Positions 5,556 to 21,308 of a stretch of DNA of 40,038 bases are shown here, piece by piece. The translations under genes and the position numbers were made by a program. Position 1 is the first letter of the stretch; each line of letters starts with the position of its first letter. Origin of the DNA: Dehalococcoidales bacterium (GTDB lineage: Bacteria > Chloroflexota > Dehalococcoidia > Dehalococcoidales > UBA3254); contig DAOUFH010000095.1 in assembly GCA_034429955.1 (NCBI GenBank), forward strand, positions 1 through 40,038, written 5' to 3'. A model generated the notes under the pieces. The model did not search any database. It saw only the letters and a list, made by a program, of their open reading frames with translations, and was not told the origin of the DNA.

Positions 5556-7715
5556 TCACTCAACCGGTGGACTCAACGATGGGTTCTTTTGCATTGAAAG
5601 CAAAATCCGCCGCCGGGCTTTATCGATTTCCAGAACGGTGACTTCAACCTTCTGCTGGACCTTAACAATGTCATTGGGATTTTTTACAAAGCGGTCGGCC
5701 ATTTTGCTGATATGCACCAGGCCGTCCTGATGAACTCCGATGTCCACAAAAGCGCCGAAGTTGGTGACATTGGTAACGATGCCCGGCAGCTTCATACCGG
5801 GTTTAAGCTGGTCGATATTATTGATACCAGCCGCGAAGCTGAATATTTCAAATTGAGCGCGGGGGTCGCGTCCCGGTTTGCCCAGTTCCTGTAAAATATC
5901 GCTTAATGTAGGCAGTCCCACCTTATCACTCAGGTATTTTTCCAGTACAATCTTTTGACGCAGTTCTTCATTCTGCATCAGGTCCTGCACTGTACAGGCC
6001 AGGTCGGCCGCCATCTTTTTAACCAGGTCATAATTCTCAGGATGAATGGCACTGGCATCCAGGGGATTTTTAGCGTTATAGATGCGCAGGAAACCGGCTG
6101 CCTGTTCAAAGGCCTTGGGGCCCAGGCGAGGCACCTTGCGCAATTCCTGGCGGGTTTTAAAAGGGCCGTTCTGGTCGCGGTATTCCAGAATATTCTTGCC
6201 CAGTGCGGGACCCAGTCCGGAAACATAGGCCAGTATCTGGCGGCTGGCGGTATTGACCTCCACGCCCACCCGGTTGACGCAATTCATTACCGTATCATCC
6301 AGACTCTGTTTAAGTTTGGATTGGTCGACATCATGCTGGTACTGTCCCACACCGATAGATTTAGGATCAATCTTAACCAGTTCAGCCAGAGGGTCCATCA
6401 GACGGCGTCCGATAGAAACCGCCCCGCGCACAGTGATATCATGATCGGGAAATTCCTCACGGGCCGCATCCGAAGCCGAATATATTGAGGCCCCGCTCTC
6501 GTTGACCTGTACTATAGCTATCGATTCCGGCAGGCCCAGGGCGCGGACGAAAGCCTCCGTTTCACGGCCGGCGGTGCCGTTGCCGATGGCAATAGCTTCG
6601 ATTTTGTACTTCTGTACCAGTTCAAGCAGGCTCTTTTTAGCTTCTGCCTCGAGTTTGGCCGACTGGGTAGGGAATATGGTGGTATTATGCAGCAGTTTGC
6701 CCTGGGGGTCGAGACAGACCACTTTACAGCCGGTACGGAAGCCGGGGTCGATTGCCAGCACCGTTTTTTGTCCCAGCGGCGGCGACATTAAAAGTTCCTG
6801 CAGATTGCGGGTAAAGACCCGGATGGCCTCAGCATCGGCACGTTCCTTAATCTCCTGACGGATATCAGTTTCCAGCGAAGGAGCCAGCAGCCTTTTATAA
6901 CTGTCTTCCAGAGCCAGTACCACCTGATCGGAGCAGGGATTTTGGGCTTTAACCATATGACGGAAAATGATTGAAAGGGCCTTGTCTTCCGGTGGCCGGA
7001 TTTCCAGTTTAAGGAACTCCTCAGTTTCACCCCGGAACAAGGCCAGCACCCGGTGGGCGGGCATTCTTAAAATCGCTTCGGATATCTCAAAATAATCGCG
7101 GTATTTGGCGCCTTCCTCTTCCTTACCCTTAACCACCCGTGACTGCAGCACTCCTTCGCGGGCAAAGAGCAACCGCAGGGACTGGCGCAAAGCGGCGTCT
7201 TCATTGATGATTTCGGCGATAATATCGCGGGCTCCCGCCAGAGCGTCTTCTACGGACTCAACCCCTTTTTCGGTGTTGATATAGGCGGCGGCAGCCTGAA
7301 GCGGATCTGTTTTATTATCCTGTAACAGAATCAAATCGGCCAGCGGAGCCAGGCCCTTTTCACGCGCGATAGTGGCGCGGGTGCGCCGTTTGGGCCGGTA
7401 AGGCAGATAAATATCTTCCAGTTCCGGCAGCGTTTGAGCTTCGTCGATAGCCTTCTGCAGCTCGGGTGTCAGCAAATCACGTTCTTCCAGTGATTTAATG
7501 ATAGCCTCACGGCGCTTGTCCATTTCAGCCAACTGAGCCAGGCGGTCACGCACATTGGCGATAACCACTTCATCCAGCGAGCCGGTCTGTTCCTTGCGGT
7601 AGCGGGCGATGAAAGGAACAGTAGAACCCTCTTGAAAAAGCTTATCTATAGCGGTGATCTGCCAGAGTTGCAGTCCCAGTTCCCGGGCTACGCTGGAGGT
7701 ATGTAAATCAGTCAT
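5556..7715 (-). CDS. tex: Tex-like transcription accessory protein (S1 RNA-binding domain at C-terminus)
   Basis: Tex N-terminal motif VPFIARYRKE, YqgF/RuvC-like and HhH regions, and C-terminal S1 domain GIVTNVTNFGAFVDIG. Start placed at the ATG at 7715 (MTDLHTSSVAREL). The 38 codons upstream in the ORF track look like read-through of the 5' region. Confidence 0.9.
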   Translation of the reverse strand: MTDLHTSSVARELGLQLWQITAIDKLFQEGSTVPFIARYRKEQTGSLDEVVIANVRDRLAQLAEMDKRREAIIKSLEERDLLTPELQKAIDEAQTLPELEDIYLPYRPKRRTRATIAREKGLAPLADLILLQDNKTDPLQAAAAYINTEKGVESVEDALAGARDIIAEIINEDAALRQSLRLLFAREGVLQSRVVKGKEEEGAKYRDYFEISEAILRMPAHRVLALFRGETEEFLKLEIRPPEDKALSIIFRHMVKAQNPCSDQVVLALEDSYKRLLAPSLETDIRQEIKERADAEAIRVFTRNLQELLMSPPLGQKTVLAIDPGFRTGCKVVCLDPQGKLLHNTTIFPTQSAKLEAEAKKSLLELVQKYKIEAIAIGNGTAGRETEAFVRALGLPESIAIVQVNESGASIYSASDAAREEFPDHDITVRGAVSIGRRLMDPLAELVKIDPKSIGVGQYQHDVDQSKLKQSLDDTVMNCVNRVGVEVNTASRQILAYVSGLGPALGKNILEYRDQNGPFKTRQELRKVPRLGPKAFEQAAGFLRIYNAKNPLDASAIHPENYDLVKKMAADLACTVQDLMQNEELRQKIVLEKYLSDKVGLPTLSDILQELGKPGRDPRAQFEIFSFAAGINNIDQLKPGMKLPGIVTNVTNFGAFVDIGVHQDGLVHISKMADRFVKNPNDIVKVQQKVEVTVLEIDKARRRILLSMQKNPSLSPPVE

Positions 7716-8004
7716 TATAAAATCTTCTCTCAGGTTGATATTTGCTTGGAGGCATAGAAGCCTGCCAACATTATACAACTTTGGGAGATTGAAAAAACGA
7801 GTAACAAAATGAACAGCCAAAGAAAACACTCACATGATATTTAAACCAGATCCGTTTGAAATATCTTTTAACTATTTAATTAACACTTTTCCTCCAGCTT
7901 TAAAACAAAATAACCAACAGTCTCCAACCAATAAACAAATTATTAAGCAAAAAGTTAAATCTGTGGATTAACTATTCGGATGTTTTTAATCATAAGTTAA
8001 CCGT

Positions 8005-8034
8005 TTGACTACCTATAGTTACAAAGAATACTAT
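8005..8034 (+). promoter_or_regulatory. Candidate sigma70-like promoter of the island operon (TTGACT - 18 nt - TACTAT)
   Basis: TTGACT at 8005-8010 and TACTAT at 8029-8034, about 30 nt upstream of the first possible start (TTG 8064). Pattern match only. Confidence 0.3.
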
Positions 8035-8063
8035 ATTTATAAATCAATCAGGACAACAAGAAT

Positions 8064-9401
8064 TTGGAAACACTAATTCAAAATCAGAATAGGGTTGCCG
8101 CGTTCTCCGTTTTTAACGAAGAAGTTGGTATGGTTTTAACTAAAGGACAATTGTCTGAATTTAGTTTAAAAAATAACGCGTATATACTTTCTTTACTAAA
8201 TGGAAAAGCATCCGAAGTTCTCCAAAAAACAGTATCTCTAAAGATAAGAAGAGAATCTGGTATATTTTTTACAAGCCACGAATTATCAAATAAATTGGCA
8301 TGGAAAATATCAAACTTATTATCCAAAGGAATAAAAGTGGTAGATCCAGCCTGTGGAGCCGGAGACCTGCTTTTAGCTTGTGCACAATATTTACCATTGG
8401 GTAAAAATTTGGGTGACACTATAAATAAATGGTCAGAATTAGTATCCGGGTTCGATTTGTATGATGAGTTTATTTTAGCCACCAAGTTAAGACTTATTTT
8501 ATTGGCAGCAGCCAGAAGTAAAGATAGTCAAAATATTGAAAACTATCTTTTAGAATCAAAGGTCTTTACTGGTTTGGTTAAAAAAGACTTTATATCTGAT
8601 AAAAACGATTTTCGTGAAATGGTATGTTTCGTCGTAAATCCACCATTCGGCGATATTGATGCTCCTAATGGATGTAAATGGGCAACAGGAAAAATTCAGA
8701 CCGCCGCCAGGTTCATGGAAAAACTGTTCATCGAATCTAATCCAGGTCAACAAATTTTGGCAATATTACCAGATGTTTTGCGTAGTGGTACAAGGTATTC
8801 AAAATGGAGAAAAGTTATTGGACAATTTTGTTCCAATTTAGAAATTGAGTCTGCTGGGCGCTTTGATGCGGGGACAGATGTAGATGTGTTTATACTTCAA
8901 GCCACTATGCGCTTTAAGAATGAGATTAACGTTACTTGGCCAGATAATAGTCCAATAATTAATTATAAATATTCAAGCACTGTTTCAGACTATTTTAATG
9001 TTTGTGTTGGGACAATTGTTCCCTATAGGGACCCTGATGAAGGTACAGAATTTCCGTACTTACATGCAAAAAATGCTGAAAAAGGGCAGATTATTAATAG
9101 TTTATCGGAAACAATTTTAACAAAACGAAAGTGTTTTCATCCACCATTTGTTGTAGTGCATCGTACTTCAAGCCCAAATGATACTCCACGATGTGTTACA
9201 AGCATTGTGAACATAAAAAATAATGTCGCTGTCGAAAATCACCTAATTATACTCAAACCAAAGAATAATCAATTGGAGTTATGCCATAGACTAGTGAAAA
9301 TATTAAATTCTTCAATTACAGATACTTTCTTAAACCAGCGTATCCGGTGTAGACATCTAACCGTAGCTTCCGTAAAAGAAATTCCGTGGGTTGAGGAATA
9401 A
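8064..9401 (+). CDS. Gamma-class N6-adenine DNA methyltransferase, M.TaqI/Eco57I-like, with C-terminal target-recognition domain
   Basis: Motif I VVDPACGAGDLLLA is followed by motif IV VVNPPFGD (order I then IV indicates gamma class). About 230 aa of C-terminal non-catalytic region. The start is uncertain: TTG at 8064 or ATG at 8130. Confidence 0.8.
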   Translation: METLIQNQNRVAAFSVFNEEVGMVLTKGQLSEFSLKNNAYILSLLNGKASEVLQKTVSLKIRRESGIFFTSHELSNKLAWKISNLLSKGIKVVDPACGAGDLLLACAQYLPLGKNLGDTINKWSELVSGFDLYDEFILATKLRLILLAAARSKDSQNIENYLLESKVFTGLVKKDFISDKNDFREMVCFVVNPPFGDIDAPNGCKWATGKIQTAARFMEKLFIESNPGQQILAILPDVLRSGTRYSKWRKVIGQFCSNLEIESAGRFDAGTDVDVFILQATMRFKNEINVTWPDNSPIINYKYSSTVSDYFNVCVGTIVPYRDPDEGTEFPYLHAKNAEKGQIINSLSETILTKRKCFHPPFVVVHRTSSPNDTPRCVTSIVNIKNNVAVENHLIILKPKNNQLELCHRLVKILNSSITDTFLNQRIRCRHLTVASVKEIPWVEE

Positions 9402-9404
9402 ATT

Positions 9405-11690
9405 ATGGATGATCGCAAATTAATCGAATCAACTCCTTTTTCAATTGATGCTCGTGTTGCAATCCAGCTAGGAAGAGAAAGTATTTCTAGTTCACTAGTC
9501 GCAGTATCCGAACTAGTTAAAAATTCCTATGATGCAGATGCTGAGGAAATAATAATTGAGTTTTTTGACCGCAATACTACATCACCAACAATAGTCATCG
9601 AAGATGATGGAAATGGAATGACTTTTGATACACTGAAGAACAACTGGTTACGAATAGGTACAGACAATAAATCCAAAACGGATAAATCCGAAGTAAAACA
9701 TCGTGTGCTTACTGGGTTAAAAGGTCTAGGTAGGTTGGGAATTGACAGGCTGTGTAAGAAATTGATACTTCAAACAATCACTGAAACATCAGACCAAGCT
9801 ATTGAACTCGAAATAGATTGGGGTAGTTTTGACCAGAGTGGAGGCATTGACCTTGCTTCTATTAAACATAATATCTACGAGATATCTCCCAAGTTTCATG
9901 ACAAATTCGGGACTTTCCCAACTAATAATAAGTCCAAAGGGACTCGATTAATATTATTAGGACTGAAAGATGAGTGGACTGAAGAGTTTATTACAGAACT
10001 AAAAAACGAACTATCCCGTTTGGTTTCACCGTTTGATAGTATAAAAGACTTTTCAGTCGTGCTAAAAACAGGTATCCCGAAGCTTGATGGCAAAGTAAAT
10101 TCAAAACAATATTTACGCGCTGCAGAAGCAACTCTCCACTCAATAATAGATAAAAACAATATGGTTTCACTTGAAATTGCATCTTCGGCCTATGGAAAAC
10201 GATTCAAACAACCACCCATTTTATGGAAAGATTGGCTTCCAGAAAGAACCTCTGTTCCTAAATGTGGACCTTTACGATTGGAAATGTACTATATTCCAGA
10301 TCGACCAGACAATGTATTACAGTCTCTTGATTTTAAGAAGCAAACTATTAAAGAATTTGTACGTAACAATCAAGGTATAAGAATTTACCGAGACCAATTT
10401 AGAGTGAAGCCCTATGGCGAACCTTCGGGAGAAGGAGACTGGTTAAACCTATCCTATCGTAGGGCAACGCAACCACAAGCAATTACACAGAAAGGATGGA
10501 GGGTCGGTTACCATCAGGTCATCGGTGCTGTATTTATCACTCGTGAATTTAATCCAGGCTTAAATGATCAAACTAATCGAGAAGGTTTAGTAGAAACAAC
10601 TCCTTTTTTTGATTTAAAAGCATTTGGACACAAATCGATTCAAATATTTGAACACTATTTACAGTTATGGGCGTCGGAAGAAAATGATAATAGTGAATCT
10701 GAAAAAGCTAAGGTTAAAACTAACTTAGCAATCTTAAATTCGGTTTCGGTAATTAATGACTTGAAACAAAAAGTCCAAGATCTTGAGATGACATCGGAAT
10801 CGGTTACCGAAAAAGGTAAACTACCCACCAAGGAATTATCCAAACAAATTGAACACGTCGAAAAAACTATAACAGAATCTATTAACTCTTTTAAAAATTA
10901 TGAAATAATTTTAGAAAATGCCCAAAAAGAACTACGACAAGAAAAAGATACCCTTTCAAATCTAGCCTCATTAGGCATATTAACTGTAAGTTTCGGACAC
11001 GAAACTAAAGGAGCCGCAAATTTAGCAGCTCAGAATTCATCAATGCTTAAAAATATTATTCAAAAAGGAAAACTCTTTTTAATGCCCGATGAAGAACAGC
11101 ATTTGTTTGAAAAAATTGACATCATAATAAGAAATATTGATTATGTAAACACCTTTGCTAACTTTGCATTAGCTAACGTTAAATGGGATAAAAGAAAACG
11201 AAGCTTAATTAGTATTGGGAAAATTTGTAAATATGTTATCGACAACTTCAAATTAATTTTTTCCAGTAAAAATATTGATGTTAACATAGATGAGATTGCT
11301 GAAAATATACCGTCTATAAAAGGATTTGCTATAGATTGGGAAAGCATTTTTGTTAATTTTATAACAAATTCAATTTGGGCACTTGAAGATATTCCAGCTG
11401 CAAATCGTAAAATTTGCATCTCAATTAAAAACAATGATGATAACATCAAGATAAATTTTGCTGATAGCGGGAAGGGTCTCGAAAAGGGGACTGAGAATAT
11501 GATATTTGCTCCGACGTTTTCAACAAAAAGGAATGAGAAAGGTGAGCAAATCGGAACAGGTATGGGTTTATCAATTATAAAAACATTTGTTGAAAATCAT
11601 GCTAAAGGAAGTATTATTGCGATTTCGCCTGGAAGGATAGGTGGAGCTGAATTCGTTATCACCATTCCCAATAGTAACGATGTGAGGTAA
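9405..11690 (+). CDS. Dual-GHKL protein: N-terminal MORC/Hsp90-like ATPase (HATPase_c_3-like) fused via coiled coil to a histidine-kinase core (DHp + CA)
   Basis: N-terminal module: ELVKNSYDA (N40), IEDDGNGM (D67xGxG), GLKGLGRLG. Residues about 430-520 are heptad-rich. DHp-like LGILTVSFGHETKG (His532, codon 10998-11000). CA domain: NFITNS, DSGKGL, IFAPTFSTK, GTGMGLS. No TM segment. GAGGAA RBS 6 nt before the ATG. Confidence 0.75.
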   Translation: MDDRKLIESTPFSIDARVAIQLGRESISSSLVAVSELVKNSYDADAEEIIIEFFDRNTTSPTIVIEDDGNGMTFDTLKNNWLRIGTDNKSKTDKSEVKHRVLTGLKGLGRLGIDRLCKKLILQTITETSDQAIELEIDWGSFDQSGGIDLASIKHNIYEISPKFHDKFGTFPTNNKSKGTRLILLGLKDEWTEEFITELKNELSRLVSPFDSIKDFSVVLKTGIPKLDGKVNSKQYLRAAEATLHSIIDKNNMVSLEIASSAYGKRFKQPPILWKDWLPERTSVPKCGPLRLEMYYIPDRPDNVLQSLDFKKQTIKEFVRNNQGIRIYRDQFRVKPYGEPSGEGDWLNLSYRRATQPQAITQKGWRVGYHQVIGAVFITREFNPGLNDQTNREGLVETTPFFDLKAFGHKSIQIFEHYLQLWASEENDNSESEKAKVKTNLAILNSVSVINDLKQKVQDLEMTSESVTEKGKLPTKELSKQIEHVEKTITESINSFKNYEIILENAQKELRQEKDTLSNLASLGILTVSFGHETKGAANLAAQNSSMLKNIIQKGKLFLMPDEEQHLFEKIDIIIRNIDYVNTFANFALANVKWDKRKRSLISIGKICKYVIDNFKLIFSSKNIDVNIDEIAENIPSIKGFAIDWESIFVNFITNSIWALEDIPAANRKICISIKNNDDNIKINFADSGKGLEKGTENMIFAPTFSTKRNEKGEQIGTGMGLSIIKTFVENHAKGSIIAISPGRIGGAEFVITIPNSNDVR

Positions 11691-11694
11691 TAAA

Positions 11695-12327
11695 ATGAGC
11701 CAAAACAAAATAGTATGGTTTATTGATGAAAACCCCGATGCACGGAAAACTTACGTCGAGATTTTACAGGGAATTTATTTACAGGATGTTACAGTATTAC
11801 CAGTTGAACCAAAACCCACCATCATTGAAATGAAGTATATTGTTGATAACCCTGATACTGCATCTATTGTTATTGATGAAAAATTGAAAGACACCGGTGT
11901 TGCTCTCTATTTTGGTATTCAACTTGCTGAATACTTCCGCTCGTTAAATGACAAAATTCCCATATATATATTAACGAGCTATTCAGGGGACTATGATTTA
12001 GAGAAGGGTAAATGGAGTGTGGAGTATATAATTGATAAAAATGAACTCACCAAGGATCTTAATACTATAAAGGCCAGATTGCAACGAAATATGTCAATCT
12101 ACTACGATTGTATAGACGAACGAGAACATAGATTCAACGAGTTGTTAAAAAAATCACTTGAACAAGCTATTACTAAAGAAGAAGCAACTGAGCTAGAAAA
12201 TTTGCAATACATACGCGCAAGAAATATTTTGGCAGATGAGCTCGGATCATCGGTTGTTTTAGAGGAAAAAGTCAAACAACAATTAGAATTGTTGGATAAA
12301 CTCGAAAAGGGAATCAAGCATGACTAA
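11695..12327 (+). CDS. Receiver (REC)-like domain protein with C-terminal coiled-coil, no recognisable output domain
   Basis: VWFIDENPD (D11/E12), ASIVIDEKL (D61, codon 11875-11877), IPIYILTSY (T94), YIIDK (K113) match the CheY-fold signature spacing. Residues about 125-210 are helical and charged. Starts 4 nt after the kinase stop, with a GAGG RBS. Confidence 0.55.
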   Translation: MSQNKIVWFIDENPDARKTYVEILQGIYLQDVTVLPVEPKPTIIEMKYIVDNPDTASIVIDEKLKDTGVALYFGIQLAEYFRSLNDKIPIYILTSYSGDYDLEKGKWSVEYIIDKNELTKDLNTIKARLQRNMSIYYDCIDEREHRFNELLKKSLEQAITKEEATELENLQYIRARNILADELGSSVVLEEKVKQQLELLDKLEKGIKHD

Positions 12328-12985
12328 TAATACAAAAATTTCTTATGATCATCTTTTTTATCCACAGCTTAAACGAAGACAGACATATTTGACGCATAAA
12401 AATAGTTCAAATTTCCAATATAATAGTTATAAGGAACAAATCGAGCAAGATTGCAAGCACAGGTGTGTGTATTGTGACATTACCTATTGTGAAATAGGTT
12501 TTGAAGGAATGGTGTTAGATCATTTCAGACCTCAACGACATTTCCCAGCACTATGTAATAATCCTTATAACTTAGTTCTTTCATGTCCAAAGTGTAATAG
12601 ACTTAAATCTGATTTATGGCCAGCCGGTGTAGATTGTCCTGAAACTTTCAAAGATAATTGCGGGTTTGTAGATCCATTTATAGAATCAATGCAGAGTTAT
12701 TTTTCTATAAAAACTGATGGTATGATTGAGCCGTTGAGACCACCAGCTACTTACCTTGAAAAAGTTCTCCATCTTAATCGATACGCACGGAAACAAGTAC
12801 GTTATTTAAGAATAATTACAAGCAGGATAGAACAATTTCGAAGTCAATTAGAACGAGAGTTCATCGAAAAATCTAATCAACATAATGAACAAAAAATAAC
12901 GGACGCTGATTTCATTTATTACATCAAGGAATACAGGCAAAAACTAGAACTAATGCGAAACCTCAACTCTAAAAACAAACAATGA
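12320..12985 (+). CDS. HNH (His-Me finger) endonuclease, PtuB/TIGR02646-like
   Basis: C49xxC52 ... D67-H68 ... N84 ... C89xxC92-N93 (CVYCD..LDHFRP..NLVLSCPKCNRLK). The ATG overlaps the upstream stop (ATGACTAA, 8-nt overlap). Confidence 0.8.
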   Translation: MTNNTKISYDHLFYPQLKRRQTYLTHKNSSNFQYNSYKEQIEQDCKHRCVYCDITYCEIGFEGMVLDHFRPQRHFPALCNNPYNLVLSCPKCNRLKSDLWPAGVDCPETFKDNCGFVDPFIESMQSYFSIKTDGMIEPLRPPATYLEKVLHLNRYARKQVRYLRIITSRIEQFRSQLEREFIEKSNQHNEQKITDADFIYYIKEYRQKLELMRNLNSKNKQ

Positions 12986-13050
12986 CTATTATTTGTAAAT
13001 ATACACTATGACTAATTTATCTATAGAATTTGAAATCGATTATCTCTCTA

Positions 13051-13314
13051 ATATTTATCAGTTAACGTTAAGCCCCTGCTCCTGATCGTATTCAGGGCAT
13101 AGGAATGCAGGGCGATGGGTGCCAGACCATTAAGGGCATTTTCAAGTTTGATATAGCTGGCTGAATCATAGGTTTTAGCTGTTTCCTCTGCAGCTTCATA
13201 CATATATCTGGTGAGAGCATAAACGGTATCTTCATCTATATCTTCAGTGGTATAAAGTGTGTCCCATTGAGAAACGGTATAGACCCTTTCAGACTGTCCC
13301 TTAAGTTGTAAAAG
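13051..13314 (-). pseudogene. 3' remnant of a solute-binding protein gene (possibly TAXI/TRAP-type), no start codon
   Basis: 88 open codons bounded by stops, at normal (non-island) GC. It translates to ..VYTVSQWDTLYTTEDIDEDTVYALTRYMYEAAEETAKTYDSASYIKLENALNGLAPIALHSYALNTIRSRGL... The LH-x2-A-x7-G spacing resembles the C-terminal PLHPGAxxYYKExG of TAXI receptors. No N-terminal part is present. Confidence 0.4.
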
Positions 13315-13319
13315 CTAAT

Positions 13320-13570
13320 TAAAAATACGAAATAACTTCGGAAAGAGCGGCAAGCTTCGGGAAAAGGTGAGTAACAAGAAGTTTTAGTTTCTAAGATTTA
13401 TCCCTGCCCTAGGATGCTTCGTTGCGCTCCAGAATGACACAATGGAGATAGGGAGAGTTTGGACTTTCAAGTTATAGGTGATAAGCTAGAAGTTTTAAGT
13501 TTAGGGAAAGGGTGAACTGTTAGCAGTCAGCTAGTCAGCTTGTAGCTTTGAGGAAGGGTCAATTTATACG
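13320..13570. repeat. Degenerate mosaic intergenic repeat, copy D
   Basis: Contains AAGGTGAGTAA (as at 27900), GTTTTAAGTT words (also at 1525 and 3210) and GTTAGCAGTCAGCTAGTCAGCT..TTTGAGGAAGGGT, which resembles the reverse complement of the hairpin module at 100-141. Confidence 0.45.
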
Positions 13571-13587
13571 TCTTGTGAGTCTTTTAA

Positions 13588-13943
13588 AAGCCAGGTAAAC
13601 CTGTAAGCCGAGTTCTGTGACCTGCCGCAGCAGGCCGGCGACCATCTATCTAGGCCGGCTGTTGCCAGACGGCTCATGCGGCCAACCCGAGGACGGGCCG
13701 GGCTTTCCCATTGTCCTTCTATTTGGCCTTGCTCCGGATGGGGTTTGCACGGCCGGACAGTTACCTGCCCGCCGGTGAGCTCTTACCTCGCCATTTCACC
13801 CTTACCTCAATAAAGAGGCGGTATGTTTCTGTTGCGCTGTCCGTAGGGTTGCCCCTCCCGGGTGTTACCCGGCATCCTGCCCGCGGAGCTCGGACTTTCC
13901 TCCCCGATCTTACAATCGCGGCGGTCGCCCGGTTTACCTGGCA
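13588..13943 (-). ncRNA. rnpB: RNase P RNA, bacterial type A
   Basis: The minus strand reads GGAGGAAAGTCCGAGCTCC (P4 5' strand, around 13876-13900) and ACAGAACTCGGCTTACAG (P4 3' strand, around 13598-13620). The P1 helix is CCAGGTAAACC / GGTTTACCTGG at the two ends. About 355 nt, GC-rich. The ORFs called over it are spurious. Confidence 0.92.
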
Positions 13944-21028: not shown

Positions 21029-21059
21029 CCATCTCCATTAGTCCTAATCCACGAGGTAT

Positions 21060-21230
21060 TTACCATCCGGCAGGTCTTCTGGCTTCCGGATCAGCCTACC
21101 GGCTGAGGCCTTCCCACTCCTTCAGGAGCAGTGACCGATCAACAGCTTTCGTACCCGGATACAGCGGCGGGACCGCACCCGATTTCGACGGGTTTCCCTA
21201 TTAAGTCCCTGTTACAGGACACCGGACCTC
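21060..21230 (-). promoter_or_regulatory. Cobalamin (B12) riboswitch aptamer
   Basis: The minus strand reads AATAGGGAAACCCGTCGAAATCGGGTGCGGTCCCGCCGCTGTAT ... GTCACTG (B12 box) ... GGGAAGGC ... AGCCAGAAGACCTGCCGG. This matches the conserved core of RF00174 in order and spacing. Confidence 0.85.
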
Positions 21231-21308
21231 TATTAAATTGTTAGAAATATTGTAGCAGGAGCAAATGAGGAGTTTCAAGTTGTAGAACGTTGATATAGAT
21301 AAGCGCGT

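Follow-up and report, generated by a model that had tools for sequence, protein, structure and literature searches.

A receiver-domain protein with a conserved helical tail as candidate phospho-acceptor of a four-gene, restriction-modification-like cassette with a PtuB-class HNH nuclease

What does a receiver-domain protein do when it has no recognizable output domain and its gene runs directly into that of an HNH nuclease? The question is raised by a 210-aa protein (ORF 11695-12327, + strand) encoded in the window analysed here, which is the whole 40,038-nucleotide stretch of contig DAOUFH010000095.1 (positions 1 to 40,038, assembly GCA_034429955.1) from a Dehalococcoidales bacterium. A sequence-only reading of this DNA had proposed that the protein is a receiver with a coiled-coil tail, translationally coupled to the nuclease, and had suggested that the tail may dock on or inhibit it.

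The gene belongs to a cassette of four genes spanning 8064-12985, all of which lie on the + strand by their ORF coordinates, in the order N6-adenine methylase, GHKL ATPase/histidine kinase, receiver and PtuB-class HNH nuclease. The cassette is held in an island of low GC content (~30-39% inside the island versus ~50-56% in the flanks, by composition profile). The features are as follows.

5556-7829, - strand: Tex gene, neighbour of the island on one side
~7850-13500 (limits approximate), no strand: low-GC island holding the four-gene cassette (composition profile)
8064-9401, + strand: N6-adenine DNA methyltransferase, gamma-class (Pfam, PADLOC, motifs)
9405-11690, + strand: soluble sensor kinase, 761 aa (Pfam, NCBIfam, conservation)
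11695-12045, + strand: CheY-like receiver domain (AF2 model, Foldseek, family profile, conservation)
12046-12327, + strand: helical tail, residues ~118-210, three helices (AF2, conservation)
12320-12327, + strand: overlap ATGACTAA, 8 nt, with ATG 12320 of the HNH gene and TAA 12325-12327 of the receiver gene
12320-12985, + strand: PtuB-class HNH nuclease, 221 aa (PADLOC, NCBIfam, PDB profile, Foldseek, AF2)
13588-13940, - strand: RNase P RNA gene (Rfam RNaseP_bact_a, 298.9 bits), neighbour of the island on the other side

A contig from an independent run joined the island to both flanks at uniform depth. Presence/absence polymorphism of the island was sought in metagenome runs, and no informative joint was found there. 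PADLOC placed the four genes in no defined system, and a literature search found no experimental study of the cassette and no report of a phage-defence phenotype.

The receiver gene is real, and its product begins with a genuine, though divergent, receiver domain and continues into a conserved helical tail. The acidic pocket (D11-E12), acceptor Asp (D61), Thr (T94) and Lys (K115) that had been read from the sequence were all present, with little or no variation among 18 close homologues and conservation of at least 90% across 67 diverse ones. An AF2 model (pLDDT 75.8) ran b1-a1-b2-a2-b3-a3-b4-loop-b5 and then into a long a5, and Foldseek searches with this model returned almost exclusively response-regulator receivers, with TM scores of 0.7-0.8 to stand-alone RECs at an rmsd of ~3 A. 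When residues 1-120 were checked for a CheY fold, AF2 and Foldseek thus gave a (beta/alpha)5-like fold save for helix a4, which is missing from the model; residues 95-110 form a low-confidence loop. The aromatic switch residue of RECs is not conserved in the family, and given these two absences the canonical a4-b5-a5 mode of signalling may not apply. With respect to profile searches, Pfam Response_reg (PF00072) gave the window protein 13.4 bits, under the cut-off of 30.2, and matched 38 of the 67 family members at E<=0.01 (best 4.7e-7), while a profile of the family itself recognized RECs of known structure (E=5.5e-5) and placed its acceptor Asp in register with theirs. The family comprises 668 clusters at 50% identity, all of ~205-235 aa.

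Helices of the tail were assigned to residues 115-156, 161-183 and 187-208 from the AF2 model and the sequence, and 38% of the tail is charged. As had been proposed, no HTH, enzymatic or transmembrane output was found in Pfam, PADLOC, NCBIfam or PDB. The description of the tail as a coiled coil held only in part: it is helical, charged and ~90 residues long, but it is not a generic coiled coil, for a family-specific motif (R131, R143-x2-R146-F147-x2-L150-L151-x-K153-S154, E163 and E166) is conserved in it. A receiver protein fixed at ~210 aa over the 668 clusters indicates that the tail is under selection. A profile built from the tail alone matched nothing in PDB or Pfam, and no similarity to the PtuA C-terminal domain was among the results.

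The nuclease was assigned to the PtuB class by PADLOC PtuB (2e-16), by a profile match to PDB PtuB chains (E=4.7e-5) and by Foldseek, where the top 10 matches were all PtuB chains, from retrons Ec78, Eco7, Ec83 and I-A and from Septu 8eea; its match to TIGR02646 (5e-8, 33.1 bits) was under the cut-off of 52.15. The Zn-ribbon cysteines (C49/C52/C89/C92) and the catalytic residues D67-H68, N84 and N93 are invariant in the alignments. In the AF2 model (pLDDT 94.4) the C-terminus forms a basic helical hairpin of residues 155-189 and 195-220. This basic tail could simply bind nucleic acid.

Read directly, the 8-nt overlap of the receiver stop with the HNH start was as the sequence-only reading had given it, and an AGGGA Shine-Dalgarno-like motif lies 5' of the HNH start, within the receiver gene. 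Among 23 homologous loci the REC/HNH junction spanned -17 to +20 nt; close packing of the two genes is general and the precise overlap is not. The overlap makes translational coupling likely, but it does not imply the fixed stoichiometry that had been proposed along with it. The remaining operon junctions are just as tight, and tight or overlapping junctions would couple the expression of all four cassette proteins.

In the kinase, residues ~12-220 form a GHKL ATPase of the paraMORC/BbrUII-like type, followed by a conserved middle domain (~320-395), a variable helical segment (~431-510), a DHp domain with the H-box FGH532E and a C-terminal HATPase_c catalytic domain. Pfam matches were to HATPase_c_3 (3.5e-22) and HATPase_c (9.6e-18). 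The NCBIfam BbrUII/HgiDII model matched residues 12-220 alone (5.2e-23), at 81.5 bits versus a cut-off of 550. Across 22 sequences the invariant residues of the N-terminal GHKL module were E36/N40/D43 and D67-G69-G71, and those further on were H532-E533, N651/N655, D687-G689-G691 and G717-G719-G721, so that the ATP-binding boxes are intact in both GHKL modules. Inspection of the sequence revealed no evident transmembrane segment. The methylase has motif I (DPACGAG) at residue 94 and motif IV (NPPF) at residue 192, and it matched PADLOC MTase_II (1.3e-11), Pfam N6_Mtase (22.5 bits) and, weakly, TaqI_C. The TTG at 8064 may not be its true start, which could be further downstream. It is predicted to be the self-protection arm of the cassette.

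Is the receiver bound to the nuclease by more than one operon? The order MTase-kinase-REC-HNH was found in ~25 loci of many phyla, namely Planctomycetota, Chloroflexota, Kiritimatiellota, Poribacteria, Lentisphaerota, Spirochaetota and Pseudomonadota (including P. aeruginosa). A methylase homologue lies 5' of the kinase in most loci and Eco57I-type MTases are present instead in others; the HK-REC-HNH triad was kept even where the MTase was relocated or swapped. The proposal that the REC is tied to the downstream HNH was borne out, since the order was identical at every sufficiently long locus across phyla. In more distant relatives adaptor and effector change together: in Hymenobacter and Pseudanabaena the REC has a different C-terminus and an MBL hydrolase replaces the HNH as effector, and in Acaryochloris and C. 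jejuni the REC protein is longer and a separate nuclease is absent. Natural REC-HNH fusions were found neither among the best 150 REC representatives nor among 65 HNH homologues. A separate HTH controller gene was observed upstream in some loci. The cassette is common: the kinase has more than 3,788 homologues, among them proteins of Pseudomonas aeruginosa, P. fluorescens, Klebsiella, Pantoea and Serratia and of many uncultured phyla. The Klebsiella version had no match at the DNA level in complete E. coli genomes, and phage records yielded two distant kinase matches only, both on unannotated fragments. Defence-island context near the sampled loci was weak.

A plausible role for the tail is that of an HNH-docking adaptor, by analogy with PtuA-PtuB. 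In solved PtuA-PtuB complexes the helical C-terminal domain of PtuB is clamped between the three-helix C-terminal domains of a partner dimer, and the two proteins are toxic when together (PMC12673091). Charges in the present family are complementary in sign, the tail having a net negative charge at 20 of the 23 loci and the HNH C-terminal domain a net positive one at all 23. Mirror-tree co-evolution, computed over 19 loci, gave a partial r of 0.42 for REC tail versus HNH C-terminal domain with kinase divergence as the sole control, but adding a fast-evolving control segment and a quadratic term brought this signal down to 0.15-0.18. Unrelated pairs were equally high (HNH core versus DHp, 0.45), and the HNH C-terminal domain gave a partial r of 0.34 against the kinase helical segment. 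The earlier suggestion that the tail may dock on or inhibit the HNH has indirect support in the PtuB analogy, the charges and a C-terminus that tracks the effector; the co-evolution signal is lost once rate is controlled.

Taken as a whole, the best explanation is that the 210-aa protein accepts the phosphate in a horizontally acquired, restriction-modification-like defence unit, and to this we would give an even chance of being correct. Whether DNA gets cut probably hinges on a phosphorylation signal. In the proposed sequence of events the methylase, judged by its family, would mark host DNA, and the GHKL ATPase and middle domain of the kinase would detect non-self, which we would suppose to be most likely unmodified DNA. 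The kinase would then autophosphorylate at H532 and hand its phosphate on to the receiver at D61; the residues and fold for this are in place, and the chemistry is predicted from them. The acidic three-helix tail would grip the basic, helical C-terminus of the HNH, in the way that PtuB is held by the PtuA dimer of Septu and type I-A retrons, and phosphorylation would alter the conformation or oligomeric state of the receiver, switching the nuclease between restrained and licensed states. With respect to the direction of this switch, we lean towards licensing, that is, activation of the nuclease on non-self DNA.

An antitoxin-like receiver would reverse this last step. Unphosphorylated REC would sequester and inhibit a constitutively toxic HNH, and its phosphorylation or degradation would free the nuclease and bring about abortive infection, with the methylase mattering little for targeting. 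The order of inhibitor then toxin with an overlapping junction does resemble type II toxin-antitoxin operons, the acidity of the tail could let it cover a basic, nucleic-acid-binding domain, and toxic PtuA-PtuB is restrained by a partner until triggered (PMC12673091). Nevertheless, the presence of a methylase and a paraMORC-type GHKL module makes this a four-gene unit whose logic is restriction-modification-like and not that of a two-gene toxin-antitoxin pair, and the conserved methylase and DNA-enzyme-like GHKL point to self/non-self discrimination more readily than to pure abortive infection. The partner in Septu and retrons is moreover needed for PtuB activity and is not inhibitory (PMC12673091), and a stably folded receiver domain is no labile antitoxin; we consider this alternative unlikely. 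The nuclease might instead dock on the kinase, at segment 431-510 or the DHp, leaving the receiver as a mere phosphate sink or timer that sets the state of the kinase. The divergence of the HNH C-terminus also tracks the kinase helical segment, GHKL partners of nucleases are frequent in R-M loci (PMC2292703), and for Detocs it has been proposed that a stand-alone receiver soaks up stray phosphate. A cassette with a single receiver has nothing to buffer for, however, and a ~90-residue tail of constant length and motif in 668 clusters would be superfluous for a sink, as would a REC C-terminus that varies with effector type be unexpected. We therefore regard kinase docking as quite unlikely.

Even less weight was given to two readings in which no phosphorylation signal would reach the HNH through the receiver. 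It could regulate elsewhere, acting on operon or host genes at the transcriptional or protein level, while the HNH works as an independent restriction nuclease that shares the operon. A regulatory role has been suggested for an analogous TCS-like pair whose genes are stress-induced (Bellieny-Rabelo et al., PMC8011034), and the HTH controller found upstream in some loci can be counted on the same side, but no PtuB-class nuclease is known to work without a partner (PMC12673091). The tail also has no detectable HTH or other DNA-binding domain, and in every phylum the receiver gene stays linked to the HNH gene, the two often overlapping, which leaves this possibility very improbable. Hardly any credence was given to the last reading, a pseudo-receiver that serves as a structural adaptor, is never phosphorylated and is paired with a kinase-like module acting as an ATPase only. 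Pseudo-receivers bearing a coiled coil do exist, FrzS being an example; the window protein falls under the Pfam REC threshold, and neither helix a4 nor the aromatic switch residue is conserved. Against this, D11, D61, T94 and K115 of the receiver and H532-E533 of the kinase are invariant or nearly so over deep divergence, which is hard to explain without phosphotransfer.

The phospho-acceptor reading can be set beside several known systems. The closest described kind is the R-M-associated TCS-like systems, in which HEF_HK (PF19191) and Response_reg_2 (PF19192) occur with R-M systems and paraMORC ATPases, and which are known from computation alone (Bellieny-Rabelo, Pretorius & Moleleki 2021, PMC8011034). 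As in those systems, the cassette kinase is soluble and combines HATPase_c_3, a His-Glu/Asp DHp and a C-terminal HATPase_c, and its ~200-aa receiver-like neighbour has no known output and is tightly associated with a methylase and with nucleases, HNH types among them. PF19192 matched neither the window protein at E<=1 nor the 67 family members at E<=0.01, and PF19191 matched neither the window kinase at E<=1 nor any of the 120 kinase homologues listed, both being models without a positive control; such controls were sought in five distant plasmid variants and none was found. The cassette differs in having an N6-adenine methylase where the described systems have mostly C5 enzymes, and a PtuB-class HNH where they have HNH_2 or Vsr; a REC tail acting as effector adaptor is not discussed in that paper (PMC8011034).

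With Septu and type I-A retrons the cassette shares the nuclease class, an HNH core with a helical C-terminal domain, and the position of the HNH directly 3' of an ATP-using partner system by which, on this analogy, it is probably bound. Unlike in those systems, a GHKL-histidine kinase and a receiver replace the PtuA ABC/SMC-like ATPase, a methylase is added, and control would be by phosphotransfer and not by ATP level or msDNA. PtuA models had no match in the other three cassette proteins, the kinase and receiver being the HNH neighbours in all loci; the sole PtuA-named match was to a fused PtuA model whose HNH-like N-terminus aligned with the HNH. Detocs (DtcA-DtcB-DtcC) is similar in its His-Asp phosphorelay, which there is a direct immune switch, and in its swappable effectors (PNP, REase, TM). 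Its effector is fused to the receiver, whereas here, as had been pointed out, the HNH is encoded by its own gene. Detocs also has an extra stand-alone buffer receiver, the proposed role of DtcB; in the cassette the one receiver carries a helical tail, the nuclease is separate, a methylase is present and the sensor module is a GHKL ATPase. No Dtc family was among the PADLOC matches of the kinase and receiver, in a release that may lack Dtc models. The first ~220 residues of the kinase, and its association with a methylase and HNH, recall BbrUII/HgiDII enzymes and paraMORC GHKL proteins (PMC2292703), while the rest of the cassette kinase is a histidine kinase and the separate nuclease would be reached via the receiver. 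MADS was considered because of a weak mad2 match and dropped as an unrelated eight-gene system. The DefensePredictor paper names a predicted HATPase+REC system, without detail or validation that ties it to this family.

A broader and more tentative reading, to which we give somewhat less than an even chance, is that these loci represent a distinct and widespread class of restriction-like immunity in which a His-Asp phosphorelay joins separate sensing and cutting. In such a class a paraMORC ATPase-kinase would read modification, and a receiver-adaptor family would steer interchangeable, non-covalent effectors. In the window the effector would be a PtuB-class HNH; other loci would use an MBL hydrolase, and some branches a fused domain of unknown kind. 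The tail would then be a new docking module replacing the PtuA C-terminal domain. If this is true, restriction would be gated by reversible phosphorylation in place of a direct read-and-cut reaction, and the gate could provide thresholding, timing and a guard against self-cutting; PtuB-class nucleases would also be drivable by a partner very unlike the Septu/retron ATPase. As the receiver and nuclease are at present annotated as hypothetical or generic, naming and testing the cassette would fill a real gap in defence annotation, and the model gives the TCS-like R-M prediction of 2021 a concrete, testable mechanism (PMC8011034).

A composition profile showed the cassette block to be a low-GC island (approximately 30-39% GC versus 50-56% in the flanks), bounded by the Tex gene on one side and the RNase P RNA gene on the other. 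The four cassette open reading frames (ORFs) are closely packed on the same strand, and the features of the region are as follows.

8064-9401, plus strand: methylase, 445 aa (ORF reading)
9405-11690, plus strand: kinase, 761 aa (ORF reading)
11695-12327, plus strand: receiver (REC), 210 aa (ORF reading)
12320-12985, plus strand: HNH nuclease, 221 aa (ORF reading)
13588-13940, minus strand: bacterial class A RNase P RNA gene (rnpB), 298.9 bits, directly downstream of the island
21052-21241, minus strand: cobalamin riboswitch, 109 bits, farther on than rnpB

Direct reading of the sequence confirmed the 8-nt overlap between REC and HNH, ATGACTAA, with the HNH ATG at 12320, the REC TAA at 12325-12327 and an AGGGA motif slightly upstream; the remaining junctions are gaps of just 3 and 4 nt. 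Contigs from an independent anaerobic-digester metagenome run joined the island to both flanks at uniform depth, which indicates that the assembly is sound. The island was probably acquired horizontally. No integrase or tRNA was in view. Approximately 600 bp of AT-rich sequence (12986-13587) separates the HNH stop from rnpB, its sole ORF being of 51 aa on the minus strand (13048-13203), and a simple scan of this interval found no terminator.

The 210-aa protein matched Pfam Response_reg only marginally (E=0.089, 13.4 bits; cut-off 30.2), had a single, insignificant match in NCBIfam (E=0.022) and none in PADLOC. A word-indexed search gave only 18 relatives, and an exhaustive profile search 668 clusters at 50% identity (332 with E<=1e-10), essentially all of 205-235 aa and matching end to end. 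D11, D61, T94 and K115 do not vary in the close set, and their conservation in 67 diverse members is 90% or more; 38 of the 67 matched PF00072 at E<=0.01 and none Response_reg_2. Solved receivers were matched by the family profile at E=5.5e-5, their acceptor Asp aligned with that of the family. The AlphaFold2 model (pLDDT 75.8) has the receiver fold looked for by the sequence-only reading, in the order β1-α1-β2-α2-β3-α3-β4, loop, β5 and a long α5, with a low-confidence loop (residues 95-110) replacing α4. Foldseek against the PDB returned almost only response-regulator receivers (RcsB, StyR, PorX, QseB, TrrA, Spo0F, PhoB), with TM 0.7-0.8 to stand-alone receivers. The usual aromatic switch residue in β5 is not conserved. 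Taken together, family conservation, profile matches, model and Foldseek clearly identify the protein, in sequence and predicted fold, as a receiver.

With respect to the C-terminal tail (residues 118-210, approximately), the absence of HTH, enzymatic or transmembrane output was correctly called, and a tail-only profile matched nothing in PDB or Pfam. The tail is indeed helical and charged (38% charged residues, net charge -3), with three helices predicted by AlphaFold2 (115-156, 161-183 and 187-208). It is no featureless coiled coil: its length is constant throughout the family, and R131, R143, R146, F147, L150, L151, K153, S154, E163 and E166 are conserved.

The kinase combines an N-terminal HATPase_c_3 GHKL module, like the N-terminus of the BbrUII/HgiDII restriction enzymes (E=5.2e-23), with a C-terminal histidine-kinase core. 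Both ATP sites and the H-box F-G-H532-E533 were invariant in 22 homologues, as was a strongly conserved middle domain. Homologues at E<=1e-10 number more than 3,788 and include proteins of P. aeruginosa, P. fluorescens and Chromobacterium; no listed homologue carried a HEF_HK annotation. The methylase (445 aa) is of the gamma-class N6-adenine type and carries DPACGAG and NPPF motifs. The nuclease (221 aa) is an HNH protein of the PtuB class (PADLOC PtuB at 2e-16), whose profile matched the PtuB chains of retron Ec78/Eco7 in the PDB. Its AlphaFold2 model (pLDDT 94.4) comprises an HNH core and a C-terminal helical hairpin (155-189 and 195-220), and all ten best Foldseek matches were PtuB chains, E. 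coli Septu 8eea included. Zn-ribbon cysteines, D67-H68, N84 and N93 are invariant.

Loci gathered via receiver, kinase and genome scan were re-annotated by script. The order methylase-kinase-REC-HNH was kept in every locus of sufficient length, in Phycisphaerae, Chloroflexota, Kiritimatiellales, Poribacteria, Lentisphaerae, Spirochaetia, Rhodospirillales, Pseudomonas, Klebsiella and Rheinheimera. Fixed stoichiometry had been read from the overlap; the distance from REC stop to HNH start ranged from -17 to +20 nt, with overlap in approximately 14 of 23 junctions, so that the 8-nt overlap is one variant and says nothing firm on stoichiometry. In the P. aeruginosa cassette every junction overlaps, by 4-11 nt. 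With such tight junctions throughout, coupled expression characterises the operon in its entirety.

The methylase position is modular (loci L002, L016 and L019; L031 7541-9109; L035 2035-3474; locus-internal coordinates). In Poribacteria (L002 3576-5633, also L016 and L019) a 685-aa N6_Mtase/Eco57I-type enzyme replaces the window-type methylase. Small HTH genes resembling restriction-modification controller (C) proteins lie directly upstream of the methylase in P. aeruginosa (L004 5426-5668, HTH_3/HTH_31 type) and in L035 (1007-1901); the window's methylase has no HTH ORF upstream. Decayed cassettes were also seen (L030 4672-8294; L023 1692-3976; L032 3995-6774): a Chloroflexia MAG has the kinase in three pieces, REC in two and HNH truncated, Pseudomonas aegrilactucae has a split kinase, and in a plasmid of Klebsiella variicola three genes are annotated for the kinase and REC is down to 168 aa.

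More distant variants were found through plasmid kinases with 25-30% identity across full length. Bacteroides finegoldii has kinase, REC (209 aa), HNH and an Eco57I-type methylase, the last placed after HNH and not before the kinase, and its REC and HNH both match the window-family profiles. Deinococcus gobiensis keeps the window's gene order; its methylase is Eco57I-type and its HNH PtuB-like. In Hymenobacter volaticus (plasmid; L033 5486-7199) and a Pseudanabaena plasmid (L038 5654-8271) the kinase precedes a protein of approximately 227 aa, weakly REC-like at its N-terminus and different at its C-terminus, and an MBL-fold hydrolase stands in place of HNH; that of Pseudanabaena is interrupted by an IS982 insertion. 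Homologous kinases on Acaryochloris marina pREB1 (L036 5635-6801) and a Campylobacter jejuni conjugative plasmid (L034 5668-6690) are followed by response regulators of 388 and 340 aa, which have in common a conserved C-terminal domain of unknown function (BLASTP E=1e-21; motifs PSCD and FSRYxxRxGxP); these loci have a C5 methylase and lack a separate nuclease gene. Across the variants the receiver is constant, and changes in its C-terminal extension go along with changes in the effector, as would be expected if the extension were an effector-specific adaptor. A Stenotrophomonas rhizophila plasmid (L037 5620-6950) carries a C5 methylase and homologous GHKL kinase, then unannotated ORFs of 212 and 226 aa with no Pfam match, which may be another receiver/effector variant.

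In solved complexes of Retron-Eco7 and of Septu, PtuB has two parts, an HNH domain (1-152) and, sandwiched by the three-helix C-terminal domains of the PtuA dimer, a C-terminal domain (153-216); PtuA and PtuB are jointly toxic (PMC12673091). The window HNH has an equivalent C-terminal domain but no PtuA, and the receiver is the only protein nearby with a three-helix module. Net charge is negative for the tail in 20 of 23 loci (mean -5.0) and positive for the HNH C-terminal domain in all 23 (mean +5.2). These indirect observations make docking of the tail on the HNH C-terminal domain a plausible hypothesis. Distance matrices of the two correlated significantly (partial r 0.42) with kinase divergence as the sole control; adding a fast-evolving control segment lowered this to 0.15-0.18, and unrelated pairs then scored higher, and the correlation is not counted in favour of docking. 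The expected positive control, REC core versus DHp, gave 0.34-0.43.

From the observed folds, catalytic residues, synteny and coupling, we propose a restriction-modification-like cassette. The methylase would shield self DNA, and the GHKL-kinase would detect non-self DNA and autophosphorylate. D61 of the receiver would take the phosphate, and the tail, bound to the HNH C-terminal domain, would relay phosphorylation to the nuclease, either licensing or releasing it. That REC is instead an antitoxin-like inhibitor seems unlikely, and an arrangement in which HNH docks on the kinase and the receiver serves as a phosphate sink somewhat less likely still. We consider it very improbable that REC regulates elsewhere, and give the least credence to a pseudo-receiver.

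The earlier observation is confirmed, and the interpretation given to REC and HNH is partly supported: as a hypothesis it is plausible and better motivated than before, but too narrow. The closest described kind is the HEF_HK/Response_reg_2 two-component-like pair, which adjoins C5 methylases and nucleases and is related to paraMORCs; that study was purely computational and left function open (Bellieny-Rabelo et al., PMC8011034). A 2008 study recorded paraMORC GHKL proteins in restriction-modification loci together with HNH nucleases (PMC2292703). Full-text literature searches found no experimental work on the four-gene system. MADS is unrelated. In Detocs, a phosphorelay defence system that has been validated, the effector is fused and there is an extra buffer receiver, unlike in the window cassette. 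The window family resembles the HEF_HK/Response_reg_2 systems in architecture and genomic context, but has an N6 methylase and a PtuB-class HNH and matches neither Pfam model; five distant plasmid variants yielded no positive control for the two models. The window cassette is a novel variant, widespread, poorly annotated and experimentally tractable, of a kind already predicted computationally.
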